DNA of 64,000 nt, taken from positions 8,062,001 to 8,126,000 of the forward strand of contig CM097885.1 of the NCBI GenBank assembly GCA_044892525.1, written 5' to 3'. Source of the stretch: Schmidtea polychroa. Taxonomy: Eukaryota. How positions within the stretch are numbered: position 1 is the first letter of the stretch; every line of letters begins with the position of its first letter. This document shows, in pieces, positions 5,230 through 62,999 of the stretch. A model generated the notes under the pieces. It did not search any database, was not told where the DNA came from, and was given only the letters and a program-made list of their open reading frames with translations. The position numbers were made by a program, and so were the translations under genes.

Positions 5230-5290
5230 TACAACAAGAAGATTTAATATTAAATTTAATGTCGGGTAATGAAGGATTAGCACCCATTGT

Positions 5291-9429: not shown

Positions 9430-9532
<103 letters not shown>

Positions 9533-9569
9533 TTTAAATAAATTGAAAGATAATAGGTTAGAAAAAAAA

Positions 9570-11260: not shown

Positions 11261-12589
11261 AGTAGGTCAGAAATTAATTGTTGATAAAATAAGTGTCGAA
11301 AATTTGTGTTAGATAGGAAAATTAATTTTTCATCTATAGTCACGACGCATTACGATCCCGGTTCATTATTATTAACAATTTTAGTGATGGCAAGTACCTT
11401 GCAAAACTAAGAGGTCTAATATATTGCCTTGGTTTGATTATCCTAAAATCTTAAAAGACTATTGGGAAAAAAGAAAGACAGGTTTAACAGGTAAAAGCCA
11501 CTAGGTTTAATTATGCCGTTGTTACCGCTGTTAGAATTTTGGTAGGTTGAGTTAAACATGTGAAAACCTTAAGACTGATGCTAAATGATAAATCTTGATA
11601 GGGTCTTATTTATAGATTCATTGAAACATAGACTACGATATTTATTGTTGAAATTATACTGAATTAGTAAATGTCCTAAACTATTGTAAAACATTCCATA
11701 ATCAATTTCTGCTACTTCTATTAATCATATTTAATTTAATTTTATACAAGTTTTTATTTTAGATATAATGTCCGATTTTGAATATGAACTTTATAATTTC
11801 AGTTTTGGTTAAATGTTATTCAAAATTAAAAACGCTGATATAAGGTTTCCGATAAAGAAGGGTCATAAATGCAAAATTGGGTATCTATGGTACTTTTTTG
11901 TATGTATGAGTCACAATCGTTTATATAGTTTAATTTAAAAGGATTCAAGATGGGAACAATGTTTATGATTTAGTTAGTTAAGGGTGCGATATAAAGGTTA
12001 TGAGGGACCGCTTTAAAAAGGTCAACGGGATTGTTTGTTCAAATGTAATGAATATGATTATAATAAAAATGTAGCATATAAATCATACAAACACATTGTA
12101 CATGTGAGGTGTTTTCAGCTGAGAGTTAAATATTTCAAAAAATTATTAAGATAATTTTAAAAGATAAATAATTGACTATTTAAAATAACTTTGAAAATAA
12201 TTTTTTAATCGGATCGTTTTTAAATACATATATTTTAAATATCGAAATTTTAATAAATGGTTTTTTGAAATATTTTATTTAACGCTGAAAATTTGTTTAG
12301 AAATTATACAATATTTCATTAAATAAATACTTAGAATTATGACGTTAACTTTTGAACCGGATTTAAAAATTAATTTAGAAGATGTGTTAGCAGCTTCTAA
12401 TAGTACACATATTTCTATTAAACAATTTAAAGTCTGTTGTGGAAAAGCATTATATATAACTTAATTTGAAAGAATGATAACAGTACTTATGACTCAATTA
12501 AATAAGGGTTGATAGAAAGTGGGAAAAGAAGGTTACTTTAAATAAGTCAAAAATTATTGCTAGTGTTTAATATTTATCGGTTTTCCTTG

Positions 12590-19464: not shown

Positions 19465-20199
19465 ATGTCAGTTCGAAATTTGCAAACGTTTGATCCTTTT
19501 ACTGAAAGTGAAGATAGACGGTCTTATCGGAATCTATATAAATCTTATATGTCGAGTATGTCAGAAAAAGCTTCTATTTTAAAAAGTTTGATCCATCAAA
19601 TACAAAAACGGTTTTATCGAAATCTATATAAATCTTATATGTCGAGTATATCAGAAAGAGCTCCTATTTTAGAAAGTTTTATCCATCAAATAGAAAACAT
19701 ATATGGTCTTGCCAGTAATCTTCAGGTAGAAGGTGCGACAGATGAATTAAAATCATCACCAGTGCGTCGAATGTTATGTTTAATTATTATAATCGACTTA
19801 GTGATATGTGTTCTTCTTTGGATAATATATTTGCAGCAACATCCACCTCTTATTGACAATTTGAAAAAGGAAGTTCTCAATTATACTTTTAACAATTCAT
19901 TATTCGATATGACCGTTTTATCCGGTTGTAGGTTTTTGTATTTAGAAATCGCTTATGGTTGTGTTAAATCACAATTTCCTTGGTATATTTCTGTATCTAC
20001 ATTAATTACCAGTGTGTTGTCCATTATTAAACTGGTTCTTAATATGGTTAATGATCGTGTTGTATATAAATATTTAATGATAATTCTTTCATTTATCGCC
20101 GCATGGATTGAAACAATATTTTTAATTTACCGTGTTTTGCCAAAAGAAAAAGTAGCTGAAAGGACCATGGAACACTATAGATTTATTTCTCAGCAATAA
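19465..20199 (+). CDS. Intronless MENTAL-domain (STARD3NL/MLN64 N-terminal-like) membrane protein
   Basis: SPVRRMLCLIIIIDL...LLWII, SLFD, YLMIILSFIAAWIETIFL..RVLP.E; four hydrophobic segments. Confidence 0.75.
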   Translation: MSVRNLQTFDPFTESEDRRSYRNLYKSYMSSMSEKASILKSLIHQIQKRFYRNLYKSYMSSISERAPILESFIHQIENIYGLASNLQVEGATDELKSSPVRRMLCLIIIIDLVICVLLWIIYLQQHPPLIDNLKKEVLNYTFNNSLFDMTVLSGCRFLYLEIAYGCVKSQFPWYISVSTLITSVLSIIKLVLNMVNDRVVYKYLMIILSFIAAWIETIFLIYRVLPKEKVAERTMEHYRFISQQ

Positions 20200-31965: not shown

Positions 31966-34894
31966 GTTCTGATTTTGTGTTATGAATAAATATTACGGGT
32001 GTATTCATATCTGGGCATTTCGAATTTGCCATAATGTTGATTTTCAGAATGGGGACTAAAAGAAATCGGACATAGGCCTTCTATCGGCAGTCCGTGAACT
32101 CCAGTGGGTGCTAGACAATTATAGTATGCTAAGAATGCTCACTTTTTGCTAGTACCCAAACCCTTGATACAGTACCAACGTTGATTACTCAACGGGTATC
32201 AAGTGGTCAGCTATAAATTGTATCCTGGGTTACGCTGGAAACAGCAGGAGTAGGTAGAAACTTTGAAAGTACCTGTAACCCACCAGTAGCATAAAAGTAC
32301 ATGTTTTGACCACTATATGGGTACTGGTCGTAAGGGTATTGGTCACACTAAACCCCCATTTACCAATTAACTAGTTACCTTGTACGAATAACTAACAGCA
32401 AATCCAATCAAGAAATTAACAAATATCAACCTACAACTATATGACAACAATCAGTTAACAACAATGTACCAACTACCAAGTACAAAATACCAACAACTTA
32501 GTATCGTCAACCAGTAACTTACAAACACGTATTTACAACCAGATACTTACAACTTACAACTAGCTACCAATTACTTCTAACCAACTAGCATCACATAAAA
32601 ATAATAACAATTAAATATAAAATATTCTTCAACACATACACTATCTTCTTGTCATCATCTACAACTAAACTCTATCAACCGGTTACCAAGTACTAACAAC
32701 CAAGTACTTACTAACAAATACCAACAACTATGTACTAACAAATAGATCTTTAAAAGAAAATCCTCTTCACTTGAAAAAAAAATTGGATAAAATATTAATT
32801 GAACTCAAGGTATCAATAACTATGTAAAAATTGATTAAATCATTGTAAAAATTTAAATTATTCAAAACATACTAAATAAATATCATAAAATGTAATTAAT
32901 GGACAAGAAAGAACTTTAAATTTTAGTCATTAATAATCCAGTAAATAAATAAATACTGATCATTCAAGTTAATATGAATCAACTAAGATAATAAAATAAT
33001 AAGAATTTTGAAATAAGATCTAATAGATAATTGATTTAGATTGAATAAATTAATTGAAATAAATTAATTTTAATTATTTTTTAAAAGTTATACATGTATA
33101 CTCAAATTGATTGATTGATTGATCAAAATATTCAAAAAATTCAGTATAAATTCATTACAATTATCAAAGTCGTCAATCTACACTAAAAATAATTATCATT
33201 AAATTCCAAAAGAGACTGATATATGCCAACTAATGATATCATCTAATAAATTTAAATGACAATATTCTACCATTTGTTATATCCAAGCCAATTCTCAACT
33301 AAAATCATCAAAAAAGCATTAAATTTCCCTAAATATATCAATATTTAAAGATTGATATTTTAATGATAAGTACTCGTAAAAGATCATATATTCCCGTCAG
33401 ACTAATGAGATTCCTTAAAATTCCTTTAAATGACTTTATTTCTAACCTTAATTCATATTATTACAAATATTTCACTAAAATCATATAAAATAAATTTGCT
33501 CAATAACCTTAAATAATTTATAAAATTGTTGTGTTTTAGCTAATTCAAGTCAGTAACCTCTGACTCATCGTGTCCTCTTTATCAAAAACAATAAACTACC
33601 CAACGTATATTTGAATCACAGAAATATATTTCTCTCAAAAATAAATAATCAATAACCAAAGTTGAAGTTTGACCGATTCTCCGCTTGCTGTTGATGCTTT
33701 GACAAAAGATAATATTCACCTTTTTATTCCTTAACTTCTCTTGACCAACGTTTTCCTTTTCAATTTGATTTCATTCCTTTCCACTTTTTATGTATCTCCT
33801 ATTCTATCTTTTCTTTTTCCCTAAGCTCCGTAATTCGTCTTTTCCCTTTACCTATCTTCGTTTTCTTCTTACCACAGCTAAGGCAAAATGCCGATTATTT
33901 TGAATTTCGACTTTGCTTTTATATTGGAATATTCACTTTGATTAATCGGTTTTTGACATGATTGCTCCTATCTGACAATGGTTTGACTACCAGTTCCTTG
34001 AGCTTTGTTTGAACCATATCATGATTAATTGGCTCCCTTTGCTACTCTTTTGTAATAGTCCTAACTTTGTTTGTTTCCATTAATCATGCTGTCATATCTC
34101 GCTAACATCAACTATAAAAAATTACCAATGAACACCTTAAACACCAAATTAGCTAAAATAAATCATTAAAACAGAAGACCAGCACCCTTACGACCAGTAA
34201 CTTTACGACCAGGGGGACAAAACATCCTGTCGGATAAACTCAGAGTATATATAATAAAAAGAATTGACAATAACTCCATCAAAAATGAATCAGTCAAATT
34301 ATCACAAATTTTACTAAAAAAATCTTATTCTAAAGTGGTAAGCAATTGTAGGATAAAATAAAAAAAGAATTATTTTTTGATAAATTTTGATAAAATTAAC
34401 AATATTATTTTCAGGTAGTAAGAATCTTCAATAGAGCGAGGAAATTATTCATTGAACAGATTACTCTATGATAAATTAATAATGAAATTCAAAATGGTGA
34501 AAATAAGTGGTAGAATTATTCATTAGCGGATTATGGGAGGTAAATGAAAATATACTGAGAAGTGGCATAGATAAGATGAAGGTGGATAAGAGGTGATGTA
34601 TATTAATTTAATTAATTAAAAATATTTTACTAAAAATTATCAAGTGCATAGAAATATTTAGTACAATTTTAAAAGAAATAAATGTAAGGAGAATATAAGT
34701 GATTAAATATTAATTAGTGGAATGTCGAGAATCGGGGCTATAAGTGAGGAGGATATATAATTTAAATTATTTCTAATATATGAGTTACTATCGAATAAAA
34801 ATATTTTAATAACATGTTATTGATAGACATTTATTCTGATAAAAGGAGTGTTTAATCCTCAAATGACTATTAGTTAATTGAATAGTTAATTAAA

Positions 34895-35590
34895 AAATTT
34901 GAACCTTAATTTATTTTAATTTTAAAATTTGGACCTTAATTTACTTATCTGAACCTTAATTTAATTTAATTTAAAAATTTAGACCTTAATTTACTTTAAT
35001 TTAAAAATTCAGCCCATAATTTACTTTAATTAAATTTTTAGACTTTTAATTTACTTTAATTTAATAATTTAGACCTTAATTTACTTTAATTTAAAAATTT
35101 GAACTTTAATTTACCTATTTATCCTTAATTTACCATACTTTTTTTTATTGAAGATCCTTTTTGTATTGAAAATCCCAGGACCAAAGAGACCCACCCAAAT
35201 TTACATAGAAAATTCTTTGACTTTTTATTGAAGACCCCGTTTTTGTATTCAAATTCTCAGGATCGAAAAATTCATGCTTTTTTAACGAGAATCGGATTTT
35301 GTATTGAAAATCACCAGGACAAAGAAGACGCCCTCACTTCAGTCAGAGAAATCCTAGCTTTTTTCTATAAGACTTTTTTTTTGTATTGAAATTCCCAGGT
35401 TCCATCGAGACCCCCTCACTATAGTCAGAAAAATCCTGGCTTTTTTTATAGACCCTTTTTTTGTATTGAAAATCCCAGAAAAAATAAGTGTAGCCCACTG
35501 CAGCGGTTATGTAACCAAAAAATAAAAAGAAAACTTATGCAGCAGACCATCCACCGGCAGGTTGCTGCAGCGGGCTACTAACTACCTACT
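34895..35590. mobile_element. Diverged right terminus of an element related to element B
   Basis: GTTGCTGCAGCGGGCTACTAACTACCTACT versus ATTGCTGCCGCGGGCCACTAACTCCCTACT (61897); same ~30-bp TTACTTTAATTT repeats and GAGACCCACCCAAA / CCCTCACTATAGT motifs. Confidence 0.75.
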
Positions 35591-47300: not shown

Positions 47301-48789
47301 CTGATATCTCTATTATGATAAATATAAACATTTATCGCCCGCGAAATCTGCTAGAAATATTGTCTAGTCCTAAAGCAATTGACATTAAGATAAACCATCT
47401 CGATCACAGCAAATGCTAATTATCACAAAAGTTGTCACCGTCTTCCTTATCACAATCTGCAAATTTGACAATTAGAGAATCACCGATAGAAATAAGTCCA
47501 ACCAGTTAAATCAATATAAATTCCTCTGACAAGAGATAAAGATGAACAATTTATCTTACACGCAATATTACTGATTTTAATAAATGTCACACAGCGACAA
47601 AATATTAGGCGACTAAATCATAGTCTAATGGATGGAATAAACATTGTACAATGAACATAATTATGTACGGAAAGGGGAAATTATATTAATTTCGTTAATG
47701 TTTATCGAGGTGAATAAATTTAATTTATTAATTAAGGTATAATTACTTGGGCAAATGACCCTCCCCGTATATACTATAGATGATTCAAATAAACTTGATC
47801 GTAGGGATCCCAGTCATTATAGAATGTAAATAATTTGTAAGAATAAATAATAAAATTTTTCGATCAAATTTCCACCCGACTATTTTTCAGTGTTTAATGA
47901 TGAAATTTATTCTAAATGAAATTTATTATATTTTCCTTTAGTAGTATAAAGTAAAAGAGAAGGGGTTATTGTTATGAGTTTGGTTCGCTTCACTAATACC
48001 TCTTTCTAGTAGTATTCTGATTATGTAAATTTCTTTCAGTTATGAGCGAGCCAAATTTACATACAAAAGGACTCCAACCGTGCTTTTCTTGCGCGGACAA
48101 AAACGAAGACATTCGTAAGCTTCATGAATATATCGAGGCTCTCAAAAAACGTATAGAAACTTACGAAGGCACGTGGTTCTCCCCGACACAAATGAAGGAG
48201 GAGAAAACAAAAATCTTGAGACTGAAGCACTGTTGAGACAGTCTTCTAGAAAAGAGCCGATGTCAGCGGCTAACCATTAAAGCCCAATCGGAGGCGCTTC
48301 AAAAAGTATAACCCGACTCAGAAATCCTAAAGAGAGTGCGAGAGTACCCCATCCAAGACGGAACAAACGTGTTCCCCATTCATCATCATAATGACGAAGT
48401 GCCGCAACCATCAACGAGTTGCTTGGGGCACGGATTCCAGTTCTCGCCAGTAGGGAGTTAGTGGCCCGCGGCAGCAATAGGGGGGGGGGTAAAAAATGTT
48501 GCAAACTTTTGATTGCATAACTTTTTCCGTAGACATTTTTTGATTACATAATTGTTGCCGTAATGCCCAATGTTTTCTGGGATTTTAAATACAAATTTTT
48601 TTTTTTTTTTTTTTTCAATAAACAAGCCAAGGATAAATATTATTTGGGTGGGTCTCCTTGGTCCTGAGAATTTCAATAGAAAAAGGTAGTCTTCAATAAA
48701 AAAGCATGGATTTTTCACACTATAGTGAGGGGATCTTCTTGGTCATGAGAATTTCAATAGAAAAGGTGGTTTACATTAAAAAACGCATA

Positions 48790-49440
48790 GTAAATTTTTA
48801 AAATAAAGTAAATTATGGGTCTAAAATTTAAAAATAAAGTAAATGATGGGTCTAAAAATTTAAGTAAATCAAGGTTCAGATTTATTTTTGAAATAAAGTA
48901 AATTATGGTCTAAATAAGTAAATTATGGGCTAAGATTTTTCAATTAAAGTAAATAATGGTTCTAAAAAAATTAAATTACAGTAAATTATGGTCCAAATTT
49001 TTAAATTAAAGTAAATTATGGTTCTTAAAAATTAAATTAAAGTAAATTATGGTTCTTAAAAATTAAATTAAAGTAAATTATGGTCAAAATTTTTGAATTA
49101 CAGTCCAAAAATTTAAATTAAAGTAAATTATGATCCAAATTTTTAAATTAAAGTAAATAATGGTTCTAAAAAATTAAATTAAAGTAAATAATGGTCCAAA
49201 TATTTTAAATTACAGTAAATAATGGTTCTAAAAATTAAATTACAGTAAATAATGGTCAAAAATTTTAAAATTAAAGTAAATTATGGTTCTAAAAATTAAA
49301 TTAAAGTTAATTAAGGTCCAAATTTTAAAATTAAATAATCAATGGTAAAAAAAAATTTAAATTAAAGTTAAATAAGTAAATTAAAGTAATAATTTTTAAA
49401 TAAGTAAATTAAAGTAATGTAATAAGTAAATTAAAGTAAG
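48790..49440. repeat. Subterminal ~30-bp tandem repeats, left arm (mirrored at ~60895-61550)
   Basis: AAATTAAAGTAAATTATGGTYC units. Confidence 0.85.
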
Positions 49441-49625
49441 ATTTTTAAATTTATTAACAAAAATAGAAGGTGTTTGAGAATTGAAATTTTTTAATGGAAA
49501 TTTTAATGAATTATTTTTTAAGTAATTTTTAATAGAAATTTTTATGAATAATTTTCAATGGTAATTTTTAATGGAAATTTTAATAGAATAATTTTTAAGA
49601 TAATTTTTAATGAAAATTTTTATGA

Positions 49626-49684
<59 letters not shown>

Positions 49685-49871
49685 TAATATTAATAATATA
49701 TCAACCAAATACTATACAACACATAAAAAATTAACTAAACACATAAAAATAACTAGACACATAACAAAACATATAAACATTAACTAAACACATAAAAATG
49801 AACTAGACACATAACAAACATAAAAATTTACCAAATAACAAATGTAAAGATATAAAATTTATTCAATAAAA

Positions 49872-52800
49872 TTAGTCCTCATCGGACAAAATAACGTCAT
49901 CGATATCGATGTCATCTTCTCCAAAATCTTCATTTAATTCTTCCTCATCTTCTCCATCATTTTCTCCACCATTTTCTGAAACATTTTCTGCAACAATTTC
50001 TCCAACATTTTCTCCAATATTTAATTCACTTAATCTTACATGCCCATATGCAAGACTAGTATTTTGCCCCACCCAAACCCTTTTGTCATCTTTGTTAGTT
50101 AGTGCTATTTTTGTGTTTTTAATTGTAAAAATTTGATGATTTTTGCTTGTTATTTTAGTCTGAGGAACCGAAAAAATCTGGTTAGTGTTATAACAATCCA
50201 GGTATGACTGATGTTTTATGTCACCACCTTTCAATGTTACACCTTTAGCCTTTTTTGTTTCCTCATCACCCAACAAGCTATAACATTTAGGTCTAAGAAA
50301 AACCCACTCCTTATATTTAAGACCTTTATTCTCGTCTTTGAACTTTCCAATGACTGAATCAAGGTTCTTACTATATAAGGAATGACAACTATTGTAATTG
50401 GAAGTATCCAATAAATTATCTCGAACCATTGCAGGTAAAAGAACCTCAAGTTTGCAGTTAATGACTTCGAGGAAAAAAGAATCTGTATCACCTGCAACGA
50501 TATTAATTTTACAATTAAACTCATTGCGAAATGATTCCAGATCCTTATATTGCAATTCATACATTCTAAGTTTAGATAGATCAAGTACAGATTGACCAAT
50601 GTAACTCGGTCTATCTAAACATATAGAATCGGAATTCAATAGTGCTGCAATTAAATTATCTGCTATTTTAATAGATTTTTTAAAAGTCGGTTTTGACGAA
50701 TATTTAACTAATTTACCGGCAGTTGTACAAAGACGAAGATTCATTCTTCTCTTTAAATTTTCAACTGTTTTGCCGTATAAACTATTATTTAGCAATTTAT
50801 AATAATTTTTATCTAAGCTATTTACGCTTTTTGATCTTAATTCGGTATTTGTATCTATATATTTTTTAAAAATTGGTGATTGCTTAAATCTTACACCCCT
50901 ATTTACACGTGTTACTTTAACACCAAGTTCCAAATATAATTTTAATAATCTCCAATGAATAACATAATTAGATTTTGGAAGATGAGTTAATAATAATTTT
51001 TCAACCTTAGACCCAGCAGGTTTCATTTTTTCAGCAGCTACAGGGAAATCATCCAACTTATCATGAAGCTCAGAAGGAATTACAAGATCAACTTCAAGTG
51101 TGTATCCATAAGACAAAGATTCAAGATTTAAATTCCTACATTCATCCATTATTTTATCAAATCCATCAAGAACCCAACAAAATTCGCCACAAGGTAATGA
51201 TTGACTTAAAGCCCAGCCATAAAGATTATTAATATCTATATATAGTAACTCAGTGTTCTCGTCGGTTTTTACGTAATGCTTATTCACAAAAGTAAGACCG
51301 CCTCTTATTCCACCCTCATAAAAGCTAAACATTTCGTTTTCAGTTATGAGTTCAATTGGTTCATTTAAAGACATTAATGCAGAAGACCAAGACATGCCTG
51401 GAATTCCGAAATAATTCAATGGTTCCAATCTATTGTGAGCAATGGATTTCAACCGAAACTGATGAAAGAAATCAGCCAAAAGAAAACAATCAAGTTTTAG
51501 GTAGATCATCATATAATCTAATAAAGTTACGCAATTAGTTTCTACCCAAATCTCCTGAGCTTTTTCATACTCAAGCTCAGTGACACCCTCCCAGATTGGT
51601 GGTAATTCATAAGTAGTTTGGAGAATATCTAAAGAAGTGGCGAAATTATAAGGGAAGATTCCTTTTTCACTTACTATGGTGCCAGAAAAAGCAGAATTAG
51701 TAAAAGGCAAAGAATTCAAAGTTTTGACTGCTTTAGCCAAAGAATCATTGACAAATTGATACGAATCAATGAATCTTAGGCTAATTTTACCTAAATGAGC
51801 AATCAAAGATATAAATTTTTCCGTAGTTATTGGGATGCACCCTAAATTCCAATTTTTAAATTTATTTAATCCATATTTAAGTATATGGTGCATATCGTAT
51901 CCCTTCAAGTTGTGAAATACGATAGGCAAAATTTTATTTATTTTCCTATTTACGTTACATGTGCTACAAGCTGCACCCAAGTATTTCCCCGTAAAATGAT
52001 CGTGATCTCTAACAGGATCGACGATAGATTTCATACAAAGATAACAAACAGATGCACTAACAAATTGACGTTGTTCAATTTTTGTTAATTTCATCATAGG
52101 TTTCCTACCCATTTTATAATAAAAAGGAAGAACCTTATTTAATGCTATATCCTCTATAGCACTTAAAAAACTCTCGACGCAATCTAAACCTATGAACTGC
52201 TGATAAGATTTAGATCCGTCAAAGTTATTTACAAGTAAAAGACCAGCAGATATTGGCATGTGTCGTTGGAAATGATCATTATCAGAAGGTAAAATAGCCT
52301 CAAAATCTGCATAAACTACAAAAGGAGGAGTTACTGTTTTCGACCAGTCAGTAAACTGTAATAATTTATTTTGAGGGAAGGTGTAAAGAGTTGTTCCTAA
52401 TTGATTACGTTTACATAATATTTCATGTTTTTCTAGTGCGTGTTTATTATTAAACCCATTCAAACACCGATGGCACCATAATGAACGTATGCGTGTAGGA
52501 CAACTAGTGTTGATATGACAATTCATTAACTTATTTAAATTACTTATAGCAACGTAATGGAAATTGTTTCCTTTATTTAATAATAGTAAATTAATTACAG
52601 TTCCATTTAAAACTTTGGAACGATGTATAATATCTAAATGTGGGTGTTTTAATACGTAATTATCTATTAATTGTTTGTTATTGTCATAAGAAAAAACGTT
52701 AATTATTAAGCCTGGATTTTTGGCCTCGAATTTTCTAATATCTTTTAATTTCATGGGTAAGTCCAATGGATTATATATTAATTCAGATAAATTATAACTG

Positions 52801-53651
52801 GATGTCCTATTTTTAGCATAACTACTAACCTCATCATATTTTAAAATAGCTAAAATGCTATATAAAAAACATGAATCATCGGTGTTTTTTATATTAATTA
52901 AACAATATTTATTTTTTAGATAAGTAGGTGTTTCAATGAAACTCCTACCACTTAATCTACTTAGCCTACTTATTTTTGTTATGGTGAAATGTATTTCAGT
53001 GATATTTTTTATATTCCAACTGCTTCCTAACTCAGTAATATTAGTAATTTTCTCATTTAATTCCTTAATGCCTTCATCAAAAAATGATGCAGTTAAAGGC
53101 TTTGCATAATTTGAGATATTATTAACCTTTATTTCCCCGTCTTTTTCAAATTCGATTGTTATTCCGAATTGAATTTTGACGGAGCCTAATTCGTTAATAA
53201 TATCTCGTAATTTTTTTATTAGTTGTTCAGGAAATATTATTTCTTTTATATTTAAGTCGCTTGTATTTAAGCTTAATATTTGATGGGTACCTCTTAGATC
53301 TTTTTGTATTATTGGAACATTTCCACCTATTTGTATTATATTTAATCCATCCCAAGAGTCAAGGGAAATATTATCTAATCCGACCTGGGATTCAACAACC
53401 AATCCATCATGGGATTCGACAACCAATCCATCATTGGATTCCACAAAAGGCAATCCGTCCTGGGATTCAAAAGAAGAAGTATCTAATTTAATTTTTTTAT
53501 TTTTATTATTTTTTTCTATAGTTGAGGGTCTTTTAAAAACACTATCTTTTTTAAAATTAAACCTATCTAAATGATTTTTATGTTTATTATAAAAAACGCT
53601 ATATGTTACGGGGTCACTAGTCTTACATACGGGACATATTTTAAAACACAT
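49872..53651 (-). CDS. polB: Protein-primed family B DNA polymerase (Polinton type), 1259 aa
   Basis: Exo I YADFE; CxxC..RDHDH..TG..CxxCN endonuclease-VII-like insert; Exo II FHNLKGYD; motif A YIDINNLYG; motif B KLLNNSLYGK; motif C GDTDS. Confidence 0.95.
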   Translation of the reverse strand: MCFKICPVCKTSDPVTYSVFYNKHKNHLDRFNFKKDSVFKRPSTIEKNNKNKKIKLDTSSFESQDGLPFVESNDGLVVESHDGLVVESQVGLDNISLDSWDGLNIIQIGGNVPIIQKDLRGTHQILSLNTSDLNIKEIIFPEQLIKKLRDIINELGSVKIQFGITIEFEKDGEIKVNNISNYAKPLTASFFDEGIKELNEKITNITELGSSWNIKNITEIHFTITKISRLSRLSGRSFIETPTYLKNKYCLINIKNTDDSCFLYSILAILKYDEVSSYAKNRTSSYNLSELIYNPLDLPMKLKDIRKFEAKNPGLIINVFSYDNNKQLIDNYVLKHPHLDIIHRSKVLNGTVINLLLLNKGNNFHYVAISNLNKLMNCHINTSCPTRIRSLWCHRCLNGFNNKHALEKHEILCKRNQLGTTLYTFPQNKLLQFTDWSKTVTPPFVVYADFEAILPSDNDHFQRHMPISAGLLLVNNFDGSKSYQQFIGLDCVESFLSAIEDIALNKVLPFYYKMGRKPMMKLTKIEQRQFVSASVCYLCMKSIVDPVRDHDHFTGKYLGAACSTCNVNRKINKILPIVFHNLKGYDMHHILKYGLNKFKNWNLGCIPITTEKFISLIAHLGKISLRFIDSYQFVNDSLAKAVKTLNSLPFTNSAFSGTIVSEKGIFPYNFATSLDILQTTYELPPIWEGVTELEYEKAQEIWVETNCVTLLDYMMIYLKLDCFLLADFFHQFRLKSIAHNRLEPLNYFGIPGMSWSSALMSLNEPIELITENEMFSFYEGGIRGGLTFVNKHYVKTDENTELLYIDINNLYGWALSQSLPCGEFCWVLDGFDKIMDECRNLNLESLSYGYTLEVDLVIPSELHDKLDDFPVAAEKMKPAGSKVEKLLLTHLPKSNYVIHWRLLKLYLELGVKVTRVNRGVRFKQSPIFKKYIDTNTELRSKSVNSLDKNYYKLLNNSLYGKTVENLKRRMNLRLCTTAGKLVKYSSKPTFKKSIKIADNLIAALLNSDSICLDRPSYIGQSVLDLSKLRMYELQYKDLESFRNEFNCKINIVAGDTDSFFLEVINCKLEVLLPAMVRDNLLDTSNYNSCHSLYSKNLDSVIGKFKDENKGLKYKEWVFLRPKCYSLLGDEETKKAKGVTLKGGDIKHQSYLDCYNTNQIFSVPQTKITSKNHQIFTIKNTKIALTNKDDKRVWVGQNTSLAYGHVRLSELNIGENVGEIVAENVSENGGENDGEDEEELNEDFGEDDIDIDDVILSDED

Positions 53652-54616
53652 TTTGACGCTAAAGTTGACTTATTTAACATTTTCATAATAATTTAATAAA
53701 AATAATGTGATGAACCCACAAAGTAATATCATTTTTCATCAAATTGCAAAACAGTAATAACGTTTTCATAAAATTGTAACAAAGTAATAACATATTTCAG
53801 ATAAATTTTCAACAGTTGTAAAATATTTAAGCAAATTGTAACAAGATTAGAAAATATTACAACAAAGTAGTAACATATTTCAGAAAATTTCAACAAATTT
53901 GTAAAATATTTATCAAATTGTAACTAAAATAATAAAAATATTGCAACAAAGTAATAAAATAATAATGGTAATTAAGACAAATCAATACATTATTTCGAAG
54001 ACGGACAACAAATTAAAAAGAATATTGTAACTAAAATAATAAAAATATTGCAACAAAGTAATAAAATAATACAACATTTTAAACTCTAGATCAATCCATT
54101 TTATAGAAAATTAAATTTTATCTATATAATATATGAATAAATATCCAAGGAAATTACGTTAACGTATAATAAATACAAATTTATCGTAAAAACATGTGTG
54201 TATTACACACAAAACAAGATACATAATTTCTAATCAATCCATTTTATAGAAAATTAAATTTTATCTATATATTATATGAATAAAATCCTAAGAAAATTAC
54301 GTTAACTGTATGAAAAATACAAATTTAACATAAAAACATGTGTGTATTACACACAACATACGAGACATATTTTTTAATCAAGCTATTTTATAGAAAATTA
54401 AATTTTATCTATATAATATATGAATAAAAATCCAAGAAAATTACGTTAACCGCGCGAAAAACTACAAATTTATTGTAAAAACATGTATGCATTACACACA
54501 AAGCATCAAACTGAAATTGTAATTGCGCCATGTTGTAGAGAATTAAATTCTGCCTATACATTGTTACACTTAAATCTCGATCAGACATGTGAAAAGAGAC
54601 ATAAAAGAGAAAGAAC

Positions 54617-55703
54617 AGTAGAGTAGTATGATTGGGGCCATCCAGACCAGGTCACCGCCAGGCCACATATACCCTCTCCCCCCCGTGTGTAAAATAATGT
54701 TAATAATAATATTTATACATCAGTAGATAGATCTTGCACTAAGCTTCAAAATAAGCTATCCAATAATAAATTCGGATAATGGGAACGATAACTTTGGGGC
54801 AAACGAAAACCAGGTCACCGCTGGACCACTAATAATTATATGACCTTGAAAATGATTTTTGGTTAAATGTTAATAACTTTGTTAATATTAATGATGATGA
54901 TACCTTCCATGGATCAATCGAAAGGTCTTAGACCGAGCTTTAAAATGAGGTATCGTTTAATAATATTTGTTGGCGGGAACTCTGTATATTTAAATTTTAA
55001 AATATGACCTTGAAAAATTAAATGATCACTTAATTAAAACAAAAAATTAAATTAAAAAATGACCTTGAAAAAAAATGACCTTGGGAATGACCTTGATGAG
55101 TCACGCGACCTTGAAAAAATAAATGACCTTGGAAATAATAATATTTTGAAAAATAAATGACCTTGAAAAATGGTCTCGGTAAAACTTTAATAACTTTGCC
55201 GATGTTAATGATGATGATACTTTCTATGGCTCAATTGAAAGGTCTTAGACTACGCTTCAAAATAAGCTATCTATTAATAAATTCGGATAATGGGAACATT
55301 AATTTTTGGGATGAGAAAAAGTATGTCCCCGCCCGGCCAATTAATAATATTTTGAATAATAATAATAATTTAACGTTGAAAAGATGGTGGTCATCAATTG
55401 TTAATAACTTTGTCAATATTAATGATGATGATACCTTCTATGGATCAATCGAAAGGTCTTGGACTGAGCTTTAAGATGAGGTATCGTCCAATAAAATCCG
55501 TTGGTGGGAACATTAATTTTTGGGATGAAAAATAGTAGGGGCCATCCCGGCCAATTAATTAAAACAAAAAATTAAATTAAAAAAAAAATAAATGACCTTG
55601 ACCTTTTATTTAAAAAAAAAATTTTTTTTCCCGGGGGGGGGGAGGGGGTATATGTGGTCTGGAGGGGACATGGTCTGGATGGCCCACATCATACTACTCT
55701 ACT
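54617..55703. promoter_or_regulatory. Central unit between the divergent polB genes: AGTAGAGTAG...CTACTCTACT borders, ~70-bp diverged inverted repeats, three direct repeats and clustered TGACCTTG
   Basis: Seen directly; function inferred. Confidence 0.5.
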
Positions 55704-56668
55704 GTTCTTTCTCTTTTATGTCTCTTTTCACATGTCTGATCGAGATTTAAGTGTAACAATGTATAGGCAGAATTTAATTCTCTACAACATGGCGCAATTA
55801 CAATTTCAGTTTGATGCTTTGTGTGTAATGCACACATGTTTTTACAATAAATTTGTAGTTTTTCGCGCGGTTAACGTAATTTTCTTGGATTTTTATTCAT
55901 ATATTATATAGATAAAATTTAATTTTCTATAAAATAGCTTGATTAAAAAATATGTCTCGTATGTTGTGTGTAATACACACATGTTTTTATGTTAAATTTG
56001 TATTTTTCATACAGTTAACGTAATTTTCTTAGGATTTTATTCATATAATATATAGATAAAATTTAATTTTCTATAAAATGGATTGATTAGAAATTATGTA
56101 TCTTGTTTTGTGTGTAATACACACATGTTTTTACGATAAATTTGTATTTATTATACGTTAACGTAATTTCCTTGGATATTTATTCATATATTATATAGAT
56201 AAAATTTAATTTTCTATAAAATGGATTGATCTAGAGTTTAAAATGTTGTATTATTTTATTACTTTGTTGCAATATTTTTATTATTTTAGTTACAATATTC
56301 TTTTTAATTTGTTGTCCGTCTTCGAAATAATGTATTGATTTGTCTTAATTACCATTATTATTTTATTACTTTGTTGCAATATTTTTATTATTTTAGTTAC
56401 AATTTGATAAATATTTTACAAATTTGTTGAAATTTTCTGAAATATGTTACTACTTTGTTGTAATATTTTCTAATCTTGTTACAATTTGCTTAAATATTTT
56501 ACAACTGTTGAAAATTTATCTGAAATATGTTATTACTTTGTTACAATTTTATGAAAACGTTATTACTGTTTTGCAATTTGATGAAAAATGATATTACTTT
56601 GTGGGTTCATCACATTATTTTTATTAAATTATTATGAAAATGTTAAATAAGTCAACTTTAGCGTCAAA

Positions 56669-59600
56669 ATGTGTTTTAAAATATGTCCCGTATGTAAGAC
56701 TAGTGACCCCGTAACATATAGCGTTTTTTATAATAAACATAAAAATCATTTAGATAGGTTTAATTTTAAAAAAGATAGTGTTTTTAAAAGACCCTCAACT
56801 ATAGAAAAAAATAATAAAAATAAAAAAATTAAATTAGATACTTCTTCTTTTGAATCCCAGGTCGGATTGCCTTTTGTGGAATCCAATGATGGATTGGTTG
56901 TCGAATCCCATGATGGATTGGTTGTCGAATCCCATGATGGATTGGTTGTTGAATCCCAGGTCGGATTAGATAATATTTCCCTTGACTCTTGGGATGGATT
57001 AAATATAATACAAATAGGTGGAAATGTTCCAATAATACAAAAAGATCTAAGAGGTACCCATCAAATATTAAGCTTAAATACAAGCAACTTAAATATAAAA
57101 GAAATAATATTTCCTGAACAACTAATAAAAAAATTACGAGATATTATTAACGAATTAGGCTCCGTCAAAATTCAATTCGGAATAACAATCGAATTTGAAA
57201 AAGACGGGGAAATAAAGGTTAATAATATCTCAAATTATGCAAAGCCTTTAACTGCATCATTTTTTGATGAAGGCATTAAGGAATTAAATGAGAAAATTAC
57301 TAATATTACTGAGTTAGGAAGCAGTTGGAATATAAAAAATATCACTGAAATACATTTCACCATAACAAAAATAAGTAGGCTAAGTAGATTAAGTGGTAGG
57401 AGTTTCATTGAAACACCTACTTATCTAAAAAATAAATATTGTTTAATTAATATAAAAAACACCGATGATTCATGTTTTTTATATAGCATTTTAGCTATTT
57501 TAAAATATGATGAGGTTAGTAGTTATGCTAGAAATAGGACATCCAGTTATAATTTATCTGAATTAATATATAATCCATTGGACTTACCCATGAAATTAAA
57601 AGATATTAGAAAATTCGAGGCCAAAAATCCAGGCTTAATAATTAACGTTTTTTCTTATGACAATAACAAACAATTAATAGATAATTACGTATTAAAACAC
57701 CCACATTTAGATATTATACATCGTTCCAAAGTTTTAAATGAAACTGTAATTAATTTACTATTATTAAATAAAGGAAACAATTTCCATTACGTTGCTATAA
57801 GTAATTTAAATAAGTTAATGAATTGTCATATCAACACTAGTTGTCCTACACGCATACGTTCATTATGGTGCCATCGGTGTTTGAATGGGTTTAATAATAA
57901 ACACGCACTAGAAAAACATGAAATATTATGTAAACGTAATCAATTAGGAACAACTCTTTACACCTTCCCTCAAAATAAATTATTACAGTTTACTGACTGG
58001 TCGAAAACAGTAACTCCTCCTTTTGTAGTTTATGCAGATTTTGAGGCTATTTTACCTTCTGATAATGATCATTTCCAACGACACATGCCAATATCTGCTG
58101 GTCTTTTACTTGTAAATAACTTTGACGGATCTAAATCTTATCAGCAGTTCATAGGTTTAGATTGCGTCGAGAGTTTTTTAAGTGCTATAGAGGATATAGC
58201 ATTAAATAAGGTTCTTCCTTTTTATTATAAAATGAGTAGGAAACCTATGATGAAATTAACAAAAATTGAACAACGTCAATTTGTTAGTGCATCTGTTTGT
58301 TATCTTTGTATGAAATCTATCGTCGATCCTGTTAGAGATCACGATCATTTTACGGGGAAATACTTGGGTGCAGCTTGTAGCACATGTAACGTAAATAGGA
58401 AAATAAATAAAATTTTGCCTATCGTATTTCACAACTTGAAGGGATACGATATGCACCATATACTTAAATATGGATTAAATAAATTTAAAAATTGGAATTT
58501 AGGGTGCATCCCAATAACTACGGAAAAATTTATATCTTTGATTGCTCATTTAGGTAAAATTAGCCTAAGATTCATTGATTCGTATCAATTTGTCAATGAT
58601 TCTTTGGCTAAAGCAGTCAAAACTTTGAATTCTTTGCCTTTTACTAATTCTGCTTTTTCTGGCACCATAGTAAGTGAAAAAGGAATCTTCCCTTATAATT
58701 TCGCCACTTCTTTAGATATTCTCCAAACTACTTATGAATTACCACCAATCTGGGAGGGTGTCACTGAGCTTGAGTATGAAAAAGCTCAGGAGATTTGGGT
58801 AGAAACTAATTGCGTAACTTTATTAGATTATATGATGATCTACCTAAAACTTGATTGTTTTCTTTTGGCTGATTTCTTTCATCAGTTTCGGTTGAAATCC
58901 ATTGCTCACAATAGATTGGAACCATTGAATTATTTCGGAATTCCAGGCATGTCTTGGTCTTCTGCATTAATGTCTTTAAATGAACCAATTGAACTCATAA
59001 CTGAAAACGAAATGTTTAGCTTTTATGAGGGTGGAATAAGAGGCGGTCTTACTTTTGTGAATAAGCATTACGTAAAAACCGACGAGAACACTGAGTTACT
59101 ATATATAGATATTAATAATCTTTATGGCTGGGCTTTAAGTCAATCATTACCTTGTGGCGAATTTTGTTGGGTTCTTGATGGATTTGATAAAATAATGGAT
59201 GAATGTAGGAATTTAAATCTTGAATCTTTGTCTTATGGATACACACTTGAAGTTGATCTTGTAATTCCTTCTGAGCTTCATGATAAGTTGGATGATTTCC
59301 CTGTAGCTGCTGAAAAAATGAAACCTGCTGGGTCTAAGGTTGAAAAATTATTATTAACTCATCTTCCAAAATCTAATTATGTTATTCATTGGAGATTATT
59401 AAAATTATATTTGGAACTTGGTGTTAAAGTAACACGTGTAAATAGGGGTGTAAGATTTAAGCAATCACCAATTTTTAAAAAATATATAGATACAAATACC
59501 GAATTAAGATCAAAAAGCGTAAATAGCTTAGATAAAAATTATTATAAATTGCTAAATAATAGTTTATACGGCAAAACAGTTGAAAATTTAAAGAGAAGAA

Positions 59601-60472
59601 TGAATCTTCGTCTTTGTACAACTGCCGGTAAATTAGTTAAATATTCGTCAAAACCGACTTTTAAAAAATCTATTAAAATAGCAGATAATTTAATTGCAGC
59701 ACTATTGAATTCCGATTCTATATGTTTAGATAGACCGAGTTACATTGGTCAATCTGTACTTGATCTATCTAAACTTAGAATGTATGAATTGCAATATAAG
59801 GATCTGGAATCATTTCGCAATGAGTTTAATTGTAAAATTAATATCGTTGCAGGTGATACAGATTCTTTTTTCCTCGAAGTCATTAACTGCAAACTTGAGG
59901 TTCTTTTACCTGCAATGGTTCGAGATAATTTATTGGATACTTCCAATTACAATAGTTGTCATTCCTTATATAGTAAGAACCTTGATTCAGTCATTGGAAA
60001 GTTCAAAGACGAGAATAAAGGTCTTAAATATAAGGAGTGGGTTTTTCTTAGACCTAAATGTTATAGCTTGTTGGGTGATGAGGAAACAAAAAAGGCTAAA
60101 GGTGTAACATTGAAAGGTGGTGACATAAAACATCAGTCATACCTGGATTGTTATAACACTAACCAGATTTTTTCGGTTCCTCAGACTAAAATAACAAGCA
60201 AAAATCATCAAATTTTTACAATTAAAAACACAAAAATAGCACTAACTAACAAAGATGACAAAAGGGTTTGGGTGGGGCAAAATACTAGTCTTGCATATGG
60301 GCATGTAAGATTAAGTGAATTAAATATTGGAGAAAATGTTGGAGAAATTGTTGCAGAAAATGTTTCAGAAAATGGTGGAGAAAATGATGGAGAAGATGAG
60401 GAAGAATTAAATGAAGATTTTGGAGAAGATGACATCGATATCGATGACGTTATTTTGTCCGATGAGGACTAA
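56669..60472 (+). CDS. polB: Protein-primed family B DNA polymerase, second copy, 1267 aa
   Basis: Same motifs; one extra 8-aa VESHDGLV repeat and 5 visible amino-acid substitutions versus the left copy. Confidence 0.95.
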   Translation: MCFKICPVCKTSDPVTYSVFYNKHKNHLDRFNFKKDSVFKRPSTIEKNNKNKKIKLDTSSFESQVGLPFVESNDGLVVESHDGLVVESHDGLVVESQVGLDNISLDSWDGLNIIQIGGNVPIIQKDLRGTHQILSLNTSNLNIKEIIFPEQLIKKLRDIINELGSVKIQFGITIEFEKDGEIKVNNISNYAKPLTASFFDEGIKELNEKITNITELGSSWNIKNITEIHFTITKISRLSRLSGRSFIETPTYLKNKYCLINIKNTDDSCFLYSILAILKYDEVSSYARNRTSSYNLSELIYNPLDLPMKLKDIRKFEAKNPGLIINVFSYDNNKQLIDNYVLKHPHLDIIHRSKVLNETVINLLLLNKGNNFHYVAISNLNKLMNCHINTSCPTRIRSLWCHRCLNGFNNKHALEKHEILCKRNQLGTTLYTFPQNKLLQFTDWSKTVTPPFVVYADFEAILPSDNDHFQRHMPISAGLLLVNNFDGSKSYQQFIGLDCVESFLSAIEDIALNKVLPFYYKMSRKPMMKLTKIEQRQFVSASVCYLCMKSIVDPVRDHDHFTGKYLGAACSTCNVNRKINKILPIVFHNLKGYDMHHILKYGLNKFKNWNLGCIPITTEKFISLIAHLGKISLRFIDSYQFVNDSLAKAVKTLNSLPFTNSAFSGTIVSEKGIFPYNFATSLDILQTTYELPPIWEGVTELEYEKAQEIWVETNCVTLLDYMMIYLKLDCFLLADFFHQFRLKSIAHNRLEPLNYFGIPGMSWSSALMSLNEPIELITENEMFSFYEGGIRGGLTFVNKHYVKTDENTELLYIDINNLYGWALSQSLPCGEFCWVLDGFDKIMDECRNLNLESLSYGYTLEVDLVIPSELHDKLDDFPVAAEKMKPAGSKVEKLLLTHLPKSNYVIHWRLLKLYLELGVKVTRVNRGVRFKQSPIFKKYIDTNTELRSKSVNSLDKNYYKLLNNSLYGKTVENLKRRMNLRLCTTAGKLVKYSSKPTFKKSIKIADNLIAALLNSDSICLDRPSYIGQSVLDLSKLRMYELQYKDLESFRNEFNCKINIVAGDTDSFFLEVINCKLEVLLPAMVRDNLLDTSNYNSCHSLYSKNLDSVIGKFKDENKGLKYKEWVFLRPKCYSLLGDEETKKAKGVTLKGGDIKHQSYLDCYNTNQIFSVPQTKITSKNHQIFTIKNTKIALTNKDDKRVWVGQNTSLAYGHVRLSELNIGENVGEIVAENVSENGGENDGEDEEELNEDFGEDDIDIDDVILSDED

Positions 60473-60659
60473 TTTTATTGAATAAATTTTATATCTTTAC
60501 ATTTGTTATTTGGTAAATTTTTATGTTTGTTATGTGTCTAGTTCATTTTTATGTGTTTAGTTAATGTTTATATGTTTTGTTATGTGTCTAGTTATTTTTA
60601 TGTGTTTAGTTAATTTTTTATGTGTTGTATAGTATTTGGTTGATATATTATTAATATTA

Positions 60660-60709
<50 letters not shown>

Positions 60710-62999
60710 TCATAAAAATTTTCATTAAAAATTATCTTAAAAATTATTCTATTAAAATTTCCATTAAAAATTACCATTGAAAATTATTCATAAAAATTTC
60801 TATTAAAAATTACTTAAAAAATAATTCATTAAAATTTCCATTAAAAAATTTCAATTCTCAAACACCTTCTATTTTTGTTAATAAATTTAAAAATCTTACT
60901 TTAATTTACTTATTACATTACTTTAATTTACTTATTTAAAAATTATTACTTTAATTTACTTATTTAACTTTAATTTAAATTTTTTTTTACCATTGATTAT
61001 TTAATTTTAAAATTTGGACCTTAATTAACTTTAATTTAATTTTTAGAACCATAATTTACTTTAATTTTAAAATTTTTGACCATTATTTACTGTAATTTAA
61101 TTTTTAGAACCATTATTTACTGTAATTTAAAATATTTGGACCATTATTTACTTTAATTTAATTTTTTAGAACCATTATTTACTTTAATTTAAAAATTTGG
61201 ATCATAATTTACTTTAATTTAAATTTTTGGACTGTAATTCAAAAATTTTGACCATAATTTACTTTAATTTAATTTTTAAGAACCATAATTTACTTTAATT
61301 TAATTTTTAAGAACCATAATTTACTTTAATTTAAAAATTTGGACCATAATTTACTGTAATTTAATTTTTTTAGAACCATTATTTACTTTAATTGAAAAAT
61401 CTTAGCCCATAATTTACTTATTTAGACCATAATTTACTTTATTTCAAAAATAAATCTGAACCTTGATTTACTTAAATTTTTAGACCCATCATTTACTTTA
61501 TTTTTAAATTTTAGACCCATAATTTACTTTATTTTAAAAATTTACTATGCGTTTTTTAATGTAAACCACCTTTTCTATTGAAATTCTCATGACCAAGAAG
61601 ATCCCCTCACTATAGTGTGAAAAATCCATGCTTTTTTATTGAAGACTACCTTTTTCTATTGAAATTCTCAGGACCAAGGAGACCCACCCAAATAATATTT
61701 ATCCTTGGCTTGTTTATTGAAAAAAAAAAAAAAAAAAAATTTGTATTTAAAATCCCAGAAAACATTGGGCATTACGGCAACAATTATGTAATCAAAAAAT
61801 GTCTACGGAAAAAGTTATGCAATCAAAAGTTTGCAACATTTTTTACCCCCCCCCCCCCCCCCCCCCTATTGCTGCCGCGGGCCACTAACTCCCTACTCTC
61901 GCCCTTAGTCGAACCTATCTTGTCGGGATCAACAAAGAAAGCGAACTCCCAGACGACCTCAATCAAGAGTGTGTCTTCCACGATAGTTAATCATGTCGTC
62001 GAATCTACCCTCTCTGCTCCAAAGAAGCTTAAGCGTACTTCTTCAGCGGAAAAGAATCAAAAGCGTCAAGACACCATTGCGGCATTAGAAGCTTCCATAT
62101 TTGCTGCTCAAACCTCCAATAATATGATTCCCCAACCAAATGTGCCCGTAGGAACGGAAATTTATCGTCTCGTTCCTGCTGTAGAAACCAGAATAAATGG
62201 AAGACGCTCGGCTCCAGGTTGATATCGACGCCCTAATAGCCGAGGGTGAAGTGTTTTGACGATTTTTCGACATCTGATTCGTGAAAAGATTTTCTAATCC
62301 ACTCGAACATTTCTCCGGATATCCTGTGTAATAAACGAACTTGTTGTATTGAGTTAAGTCTGGTTTTGTATAACAATTATACTGTGCGACCTTATCTTAT
62401 TAGTTTTTACTGTACGTCTTTTTGATTTTCTGTTAAGCATCATGTTTGAAATCAATCGCCTGAAGTTTTTCGTTACTAAAGTCGTCCTCTTGGACCAGGG
62501 TCGTACTGATTGAATAAATGAACAGGATAAGTCATTCCATGGCACCATTGAACCTGTACCGAGATTCTGCCAGGAGTAGTTCTACCATAGGAGCTCACCT
62601 GCTGGTAGACTCCAACCCATGTGCGCATTTCTAACGTGTTACATCACCACGGGCACACATGAGGGAGATGATATGCAAGTCATACTGGTTGCTTAGGGAA
62701 CACTCTGAGTACGCAAAAAATTTGTTTTTCCCCTAAGTAACCAACACTAGTGAATGTTGCTAATGTTAAATATATGTATAGTTTTCAGTTAAAATTGAAC
62801 TTCATTTCTAAAACTGTTAATAGTGTGACGAATCTTGAGTGGGACGTCTACCGGTGCAAGTTTCCTATTCAAATTAAACCTTTATTGTCCATAAACAAAA
62901 AGGATTTTGACAACTACGCTTCAAGAAAAACCGTTAATAAATTTATTGATGTTTAAGCAGATTAAGAAATGGACGTCAAAAATAATATTTAAGAACTTG

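Follow-up and report, generated by a model that had tools for sequence, protein, structure and literature searches.

A near-perfect 13.4-kb palindrome with two polB genes and concerted arms: a polymerase-only Maverick-related element family in Schmidtea polychroa

RESULTS

Architecture of the palindromic element

We analyzed a 64,000-nt stretch of the Schmidtea polychroa genome (assembly GCA_044892525.1, contig CM097885.1, positions 8,062,001 to 8,126,000; hereafter the window) and, within it, a palindromic element that carries two copies of a DNA polymerase gene, polB. Coordinates are window positions unless prefixed with C1, C2 or C3; the window itself corresponds to C1:8062001-8126000. The element (48449-61897) is a 13,449-bp near-perfect palindrome. 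An earlier reading made from the DNA letters alone (the sequence-only reading) had described it as more than 90% inverted repeat around a ~1-kb centre, with two full polB open reading frames (ORFs) facing outward, a perfect CTCGCC target-site duplication (TSD) and no integrase. All of these points were borne out: the arms make up 93% of the element, the centre spans 925 bp, both ORFs are intact and the two TSD copies are identical. The features of the element are as follows.

48443-48448: left TSD copy, CTCGCC (sequence read; identical to 61898-61903)
48449-54697: left arm, 6,249 bp, 99.0% complementary to the right arm
48449-48480, + strand: terminal 32-mer AGTAGGGAGTTAGTGGCCCGCGGCAGCAATAG, then a G run of variable length (genome pattern search)
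48791-49450: subterminal tandem array, ~31-nt units of the AAATTAAAGTAAATTATGGTYC type (Tandem Repeats Finder)
up to 49830: more AT-rich repeats after the ~31-nt array (Tandem Repeats Finder)
49872-53651, - strand: polB copy 1, 1259 aa (ORF list, translation)
53652-54697: region upstream of polB copy 1 within the left arm, its presumed promoter region
54085-54502: 144-bp repeat, 2.9 copies (Tandem Repeats Finder)
54698-55622: asymmetric centre, 925 bp, made of direct repeats (sequence comparison)
55623-61897: right arm, 6,275 bp (inverted-repeat search, global alignment)
56669-60472, + strand: polB copy 2, 1267 aa (ORF list, translation)
61898-61903: right TSD copy, CTCGCC (sequence read)

The inverted-repeat search returned three collinear blocks, 48480-49690/60645-61855 (100%), 49635-53446/56898-60709 (100%) and 53377-54697/55623-56943 (99%), which jointly match 48480-54697 to 55623-61855. 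The blocks fall short of the element ends because a G/C run is of unequal length in the two arms, and the arm limits were pushed out to 48449 and 61897 by reading the end sequences. In a global alignment the arms are identical at 6221 of 6284 positions (99.0%). Mismatches number 19, with 13 of them in the last 65 nt adjoining the centre, and there are three indels, all in simple repeats: 11 nt (G/C run), 9 nt (AAT run) and 24 nt (repeat within polB). The G/C run just inside the terminal 32-mer (48481-48490 and 61848-61865), which differs by 11 nt between the arms of the window copy, also varies in length among copies; the presumed origin may be prone to slippage, or the assembly may contain homopolymer errors here.

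The element starts with AGTAGGGAG and finishes with CTCCCTACT, CTCGCC lying immediately outside each, and its ends are of the Maverick type (5'-AG...CT-3'). The terminal 32-mer is presumed to act both as the replication origin and as the end recognized by an integrase. The products of the two outward-facing polB ORFs are identical at 1254 of 1267 positions, with one 8-aa gap. Besides polB, no ORF of at least 80 aa in 48449-61897 matches any Pfam family, and so no integrase is encoded; nor does the element have ORFs, or the space, for the morphogenetic genes (capsid proteins, packaging ATPase, maturation protease). A chance origin of this arrangement is ruled out, because the terminal 20-mer has an expectation of 0 matches in shuffled sequence and the same layout recurs across the genome.

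A young, high-copy family that inserts as a unit

A search of the genome with the polB protein gave 37 scored matches at 99-100% identity, out of 22,127 first-look candidates; most of them are in minus/plus pairs on C1, C2 and C3, with a spacing of 2.5-5 kb. With up to two mismatches allowed, the terminal 32-mer occurs 204 times in forward and 203 times in reverse orientation (control pattern, 0), and a polB 44-mer occurs 358 + 347 times, corresponding to ~705 polB copies. Termini listed for C1 pair at distances of 13.2-15.0 kb, plus two short pairs of 6.9 and 9.0 kb. Among the 96 polB places listed for C1 (0-102.7 Mb), 74 constitute 37 divergent pairs 4.1-9.2 kb apart and 22 are unpaired, at least two of the latter having a partner that the 44-mer missed. 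Most copies thus have two polB genes, and the search for further insertions with this layout and different TSDs, which the sequence-only reading had proposed, was successful. Taken together, the family comprises roughly 200-350 elements and ~5 Mb of the genome. It was also detected in sequencing runs from several studies with the same organism label.

Both flanks were available for 11 full-length copies (A, B, D-K and M). Each of them has a perfect TSD, and all are different: CTCGCC, GACCCC, TCCACT, GAAGCA, ATAAAT, TACATA, CGCTTA, TTGGAT, GCTTAG, TTCTAT and AATCAT. A twelfth copy (L005/L006), with its left end beyond the locus, was left out of this count. The two short copies, which are deletion derivatives, have perfect TSDs as well (CATCTT and CACATT). 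Therefore, the whole palindrome inserts as a unit, as had been proposed from the window copy, and we regard the element as a real, high-copy, recently active and young mobile family. A short contig from one sequencing run spans the left flank-element junction without a mismatch, although this run may be the source sample. In four runs, the Logan contigs broke up within this repeat and gave no view of empty sites, of the ends of molecules or of joints formed by fold-back. Contigs from runs guessed to be RNA cover parts of polB, a coverage that is no evidence of expression. None of the 77 related metagenome loci had polB on both strands, and none had inverted repeats of at least 300 bp, most of these contigs being shorter than 6 kb and uninformative about the layout in other species.

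The centres of seven copies range from 417 to 1774 bp in length and are 68-94% alike, in contrast to the arms, which are at least 98% alike. Such divergence of the centres against near-identical arms is what we would expect of an unpaired loop; alternatively, it could reflect the known instability of palindrome centres. One subfamily-2 centre was scanned and has no ORF of at least 90 aa.

The centre of the window copy is also rich in one octamer, TGACCTTG: all eight of its occurrences in the 64-kb window fall within these 925 bp, all on the + strand (1.2 expected). We take its reverse complement, CAAGGTCA, to be the extended half-site to which monomeric nuclear receptors of the FTZ-F1/ERR type bind. 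The centres of copies D and F have clusters of the octamer too; none were found in the loci covering copies B and E. The cluster is thus not family-wide, and we rejected it as an essential element.

The two arms evolve in concert

The first 6,000 nt of both arms were aligned for 11 copies (22 arms). For every one of the 22 arms the nearest relative is the other arm of the same copy, the two differing by 0-6 mismatches. There are 345 variable ungapped columns at which the two arms agree in every copy, and for 262 of these the rarer allele is present in at least two copies. The other variable columns consist of 26 singletons seen in one arm and a single shared variant that differs between arms. 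Indels in simple repeats are less tidy (38 concordant, 56 discordant), and the discordant ones could be slippage or assembly noise. Since mutation strikes one arm at a time, the concordance counts imply that one arm is copied onto the other before daughter elements are made. Differences between arms, in turn, pile up after insertion, as 26 of the 27 are singletons.

The same behaviour is seen on a larger scale in copy F (L034/L035). It differs from the other analyzed copies at 59 sites, all of them on both arms, and 55 of these fall within a 1.1-kb stretch of polB. This segment (arm positions ~3560-4700) is ~5% divergent from the other haplotype and is itself a major haplotype in the genome, with 216 + 197 = 413 matches among the ~705 polB genes. 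The mosaic suggests recombination between polB lineages. Across the 37 divergent pairs, the segment is present on both arms in 15 and on neither in 22, and no pair is mixed. A variant private to copy G recurs in a second copy elsewhere in the genome, where both arms have it, and a variant private to the window copy is found on both of its arms, plus on one arm at each of two other places.

The polB protein

The polB product is an ordinary polymerase of the insect-Maverick type. The domain order assigned to copy 1 is a terminal-protein (TP)-like domain, an OTU-like protease, a C2H2/C2HC zinc motif, an exonuclease with an HNH/EndoVII-like insert, and the polymerase. A Pfam search with the polB protein (P0001) yields a weak match to the EndoVII-like family PF02945 and nothing else. 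However, 1,797 homologues were recovered at E <= 0.001 among 8,000 scored (best identity 63%), and those at 50-63% identity bear PF03175 (DNA_pol_B_2) and PF02945. The nearest clusters of the polymerase in the protein atlas are mostly arthropod. By eye, the protein contains DxE, NxxxYD, YxxxD, DxxxLYG, KxxxNSxYG and DTDS, which we take to be the Exo and Pol motifs. In Spodoptera, a Maverick POLB with the same EndoVII and PolB2 make-up is described, in the available text, inside complete elements (PMC5803895).

For the N-terminal part, an AlphaFold model covers residues 128-440 (15 relatives in the alignment; predicted local distance difference test, pLDDT, 75.8). A wide VIA search matched model residues 1-101 to Y-family little-finger domains (Z 5.8-6.6) and model residues 113-250 to OTU deubiquitinases (Z 6-7.1, about half of the top 50 rows). 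Foldseek with the same N-terminal model found no match in PDB at E <= 0.001, and comparison of the P0001 sequence with PDB chains gave 0 matches. The same two-domain make-up is reported for the N-terminus of polinton pPolB in the part of PMC11161782 at hand. Residues C261 and H365 are invariant in all 23 aligned family proteins, as is the HNH-like motif (C536, C539, H550, H552, C565 and N566). Given this predicted domain set, a single ORF may provide primer, protease and polymerase.

The polB ORF is intact in 21 of the 22 arms, the remaining one having a stop. Between F-type and other copies, that is, across the divergent segment, the ratio of nonsynonymous to synonymous polymorphism (pN/pS) is 0.15-0.22; because of these values we consider that purifying selection acted on polB in the more distant past of the lineage.

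Resident Mavericks and related ends

The integrase that is absent from the palindrome is abundant elsewhere in the genome, and both the polB gene and the ends of the palindrome are of Maverick ancestry. One resident Maverick has a polB with which P0001 shares 28% identity over ~1,000 aa (E 2.5e-90); this Maverick has PF03175 and also encodes an integrase with rve and chromo domains and an A32-like ATPase. For its integrase (362 aa), at least 100 full-length matches were scored at 94-100% identity, mostly stop-free (113 candidates scored of 138,859 first-look candidates). An integrase adjoins polB in 8 of the 77 related metagenome loci, mainly on long contigs. Ends could be compared with those of a Maverick derivative, most of which lies in the window itself, outside the palindrome:

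C1:8061823-8072640, window 1-10640: 10.8-kb Maverick derivative (ends, terminal inverted repeats, TSD)

Its ends are AGTAGGTAGATGTGAGCCCGC, and its TSD is TTATTG/TTAATG (5/6). The terminal inverted repeats (TIRs) are made of ~75-nt repeats with G runs, and the genome has 18 + 13 such ends. The derivative has an rve and chromo integrase gene, split into two frames at 3981-5226 (- strand), and no polB. Its AGTAGGTAGATGTGAGCCCGC and the AGTAGGGAGTTAGTGGCCCGC of the palindrome have AGTAGG...GCCCGC in common, and from this resemblance it seems plausible that a Maverick integrase could cross-mobilize the palindrome.

A solitary, older terminal region (34886-35590) is 70-76% like the TIR of the palindrome and has two matches in the genome. 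It ends in AGTAGGTAGTTAGTAGCCCG (35571-35590, minus strand), which is intermediate between the palindrome and Maverick ends. Among the 100 listed C1 termini, no pair is more than 15.0 kb apart and every pair is the palindrome itself. The Maverick on C2 showed no recognizable ends or TIR in the 27 kb examined.

Second-order palindromes

One of the short copies, C1:179837650-179844571 (L032), is a 6.9-kb second-order palindrome with TSD CATCTT. It has two 3.47-kb arms and no centre, and each arm ends in a truncated polB. The joint lies at a natural 8-nt inverted repeat in polB (ATATCGTA ... TACGATA) that encloses a 17-nt loop, as one would expect if a polymerase had jumped to the complementary strand at microhomology. 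The exact junction occurs once in the genome, plus a near-identical perfect-hairpin variant at C1:220637899. A junction search with two mismatches matched normal polB, and its result is therefore a count of polB genes, not of derivatives. In the 9.0-kb copy most of one arm is missing. Fold-back has thus occurred at least twice in the family.

DISCUSSION

Proposed mechanism

We read the element as a non-autonomous, polymerase-only derivative of a Maverick/Polinton, which arose by template-switch fold-back, replicates from two identical ends and is integrated in trans; we put the probability of this reading at about 0.68. It agrees with the suggestion of the sequence-only reading that the layout resembles a copy-back replicon with integrase supplied in trans. 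That suggestion is the best supported one because of the second, independent fold-back derivative, the at least 100 Maverick integrase genes elsewhere in the genome and the presence of integrase-bearing Mavericks with related ends. What did not hold is the idea of one captured replicon, since we are dealing with a proliferating family.

The palindrome may have originated during protein-primed strand-displacement replication, when the polymerase, a few kb in from the polB-bearing end, left its template for the displaced or nascent strand. The product of such a switch would have the same end, origin and polB on both sides, and the integrase, packaging and capsid genes would be lost. Switching onto the displaced strand is described for the phi29 DNA polymerase, a strand-displacing and protein-primed enzyme, in the available text of PMC4176320. 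Replication would then be carried out by the element's own polymerase, primed by its TP domain and starting from either of the identical ends. As for arm identity, a full-length single strand may snap into a 6-kb hairpin with the centre as the loop, or the polymerase may switch strands within the palindrome. By either route, a change in one arm would be copied to the other before the next insertion. In the original model, as cited in PMC4196379, a single-stranded 'racket-like' intermediate is proposed for Polintons; that of the palindrome would be a hairpin instead of a racket. Finally, the rve and chromo integrase of resident Mavericks would act in trans on the shared AGTAGG...GCCCGC ends and insert the double-stranded copy.

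Somewhat speculatively, the element may be taken further, as a polB-only minimal self-replicating replicon, made up of nothing more than a TP-OTU-polymerase gene and the same origin at each of its two ends. As a satellite of Mavericks, it would borrow their integrase and perhaps their capsids, and would pass through a single-stranded hairpin in each generation. The concert of the arms would then be the first natural readout of the fold-back intermediate that has so far only been proposed for Polintons/Mavericks. We consider this extended version possible, but doubtful.

A number of observations weigh against the proposed mechanism. The 11 copies were picked from the best-scoring polB matches, which biases them towards young and intact copies. 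Pfam does not assign P0001 to PF03175 at E <= 1, and this assignment rests on homologues, motifs identified by eye and folds with middling Z values (<8). Between the two main subfamilies pN/pS is 1.75, a value obtained from 14 differences only, and selection on polB in the recent burst is not demonstrable, the burst being too young. The Maverick and palindrome ends match in only 17 of the first 27 nt (counted by hand), and no integrase-bearing element with the identical terminal 32-mer is present among the 100 listed C1 termini. The 925-bp centre is far longer than the 17-nt loop of the second-order palindrome and shows no junction, so that a simple strand switch is no more than a possible origin for it. 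The data are chromosomal copies and short Logan contigs, in which neither free linear or hairpin DNA nor a transcript or protein was observed. Lastly, the arms could be kept in concert by gene conversion in the chromosome instead of a replication intermediate.

Alternative explanations

The last point leads to the alternative that survives best. The palindrome might have formed only once and be a passive element, replicated and integrated by helpers, with polB hitch-hiking and the arms alike through youth and chromosomal gene conversion. Gene conversion between arms is well known in large chromosomal palindromes and is the main rival for the homogenization step; the stop in one of the 22 arms and a pN/pS that is not below 1 in the recent burst would also suit a passenger gene. 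However, the 345 lineage-marking columns, including the 1.1-kb mosaic, are on both arms, and only one shared variant is not. Variants carried on two arms are common to copies at different sites, so homogenization preceded transposition, and the 26 singletons among the 27 arm differences look as if nothing erases such differences after insertion. Furthermore, polB is intact nearly throughout and its pN/pS is low over the deeper divergence, and the polB of the resident Maverick, being 28% identical, may not recognize the palindrome ends. On balance we find a passive element unlikely, though it deserves the most serious consideration among the alternatives.

Less probable still is an origin of the chromosomal copies as side products of an episomal and possibly infectious satellite. 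Such a satellite would be a minimal replicon, linear or hairpin in form, that Maverick virions package and integrate. The combination of replication-only genes and identical end origins does resemble defective or satellite genomes of protein-primed viruses, and the family is seen in runs of several studies with the same organism label. Yet all of the evidence is chromosomal, with none for a free molecule or an association with capsids, and the Logan contigs are too short to reveal molecule ends.

The main rival for the integration step is an autonomous element, in which the HNH/EndoVII-like insert of the polyprotein would cut the target and join the element to it without a retroviral-type integrase. 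Such a role would fit the invariance of the HNH-like motif in the aligned members, the absence of an integrase from the element and the lack of an identical-end helper among the 100 listed C1 termini. We rate it low, and indeed very improbable, because the same insert sits in the polB of complete Mavericks that have their own integrase, both in the available text of PMC5803895 and in the metagenome loci. In addition, the 6-bp TSD and the AG/CT ends are the signature of a Maverick integrase, and we know of no strand-transfer activity in HNH nucleases. In polinton polB, such inserts are read as homing-endonuclease or intein-type invasions in the part of PMC11161782 at hand.

An assembly artefact, that is, a fold-back chimera of long reads giving a false palindrome around a single-polB element, was already raised in the sequence-only reading and has a negligible chance of being correct: palindromic chimeras are a known long-read artefact, but the layout is found at hundreds of different sites, each with its own perfect TSD, the centres differ among copies, the arms have a few private differences, and the run contig mentioned above, even if it may come from the source sample, crosses the left junction.

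Comparison with known elements

With Polintons/Mavericks the element shares the 6-bp TSD, the 5'-AG...CT-3' ends, TIRs with subterminal tandem repeats and a TP-vOTU-Exo-Pol polymerase. Published ranges for the group, as given in the available text of PMC10748475, are 13-25 kb for the element, 100-1,500 bp for TIRs and 5-8 bp for TSDs. In contrast, the palindrome lacks integrase, packaging ATPase, protease and capsid genes, and its sole gene is held in 6.2-kb arms. A Polinton is defined in PMC5499653, in the part available, as encoding both pPolB and integrase. As the integrase and the morphogenetic genes are absent, we class the element as derived from Polintons and not as a Polinton proper.

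The sequence-only reading stated that typical Polinton TIRs are far shorter and non-coding, but gene-bearing TIRs of ~2 kb have already been reported. They occur in butterfly polintons, whose derivatives are still mobile after loss of polB, according to the available text of bioRxiv 10.1101/2025.02.07.637071. As in our element, genes are located in the TIRs and are present in two copies per insertion. The difference is that in butterflies hexon and adenain are duplicated in otherwise complete elements, as far as that text describes them, whereas here polB alone is kept and the duplication involves nearly the whole element. Coding TIRs thus have a precedent, and the extent seen here has none.

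Another likeness in structure is to the palindromic or hairpin subgenomic molecules of protein-primed replicons, in which one origin-bearing end is duplicated in inverted form, as from a strand switch. Subgenomic phi29 molecules with one end inverted and duplicated have reportedly been observed, and kalilo is said to form a hairpin and its duplex derivative; adenovirus and the pGKL plasmids also give palindromic or hairpin subgenomic molecules. The inverted duplication of the origin-bearing end is present in our family, and a junction at a short inverted repeat is seen in the 6.9-kb derivative only. Unlike the chromosomal palindrome, those molecules are episomal and short-lived. To our knowledge, none of them is known as a transposon family that integrates into chromosomes, makes TSDs and reaches a high copy number.

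Foldback (FB-type) and other long-TIR elements are alike in having very long inverted arms and a short centre and in depending, as the palindrome would, on proteins supplied in trans. FB arms consist of non-coding tandem repeats, their TSDs are of a different length, and no polymerase is encoded. Bidnaviridae (Bombyx mori bidensovirus) resemble the element in the Polinton-derived pPolB and a small linear genome with TIRs, as described in the accessible portions of PMC4061559 and PMC5803895. They are, by contrast, bipartite single-stranded DNA viruses with parvovirus-type capsid genes, and they are neither palindromic nor chromosomal and multi-copy. In a literature search that did not extend to Repbase reports and most subscription journals, we found no earlier description of a Polinton/Maverick derivative that is palindromic and carries polB alone.

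The main interest of the family lies in what the concerted arms reveal about replication. Since 2006, the view that Mavericks/Polintons are copied by protein priming, through a single-stranded intermediate whose ends pair, has existed only on paper. With hundreds of near-identical, very young copies and the polymerase as sole gene, the family is a natural test bed for it. The palindromic shape makes single-strand and strand-switch steps leave a trace: the arms stay identical and the centre diverges. The family also indicates that defective palindromic genomes, of the kind known from linear plasmids, phi29 and adenovirus, can establish themselves in chromosomes as successful parasites, here occupying ~5 Mb, and that a replication module can evidently spread without the integration and capsid modules. 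From a practical point of view, palindromes of 13-15 kb, present in the genome by the hundred, may act as fragile sites and mislead assemblers, and repeat libraries that assume short non-coding Polinton TIRs would mis-annotate such elements.

Other features of the window

The window has a G+C content of ~30% and contains no tRNA and no Rfam family. A host exon at 19465-20199 (+ strand) encodes a MENTAL (cholesterol-capturing) domain (PF10457, E 6.5e-34), a family that we take to be metazoan. We considered an insertion of mitochondrial or linear-plasmid DNA and rejected it in view of the absence of tRNA and rRNA, the size of the contig (271 Mb of a 781-Mb genome) and the MENTAL exon nearby. The palindrome is accordingly treated as an endogenous virus-like element of an animal.

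Two further observations concern the resident Mavericks. Fragments of a long terminal repeat retrotransposon at 12566-13724 (- strand), with a gag zinc knuckle, protease and reverse transcriptase, are 41-44% identical to an insertion in the C2 Maverick. The resident Maverick family also has a gene for a small protein whose domain is that of the TATA-binding protein (PF00352; E 5e-15 for the C2 copy, L042:2762-3226), which is an unusual Maverick cargo, and the window ORF at 5892-6329 (+ strand) is 61% identical to the protein of the C2 copy.

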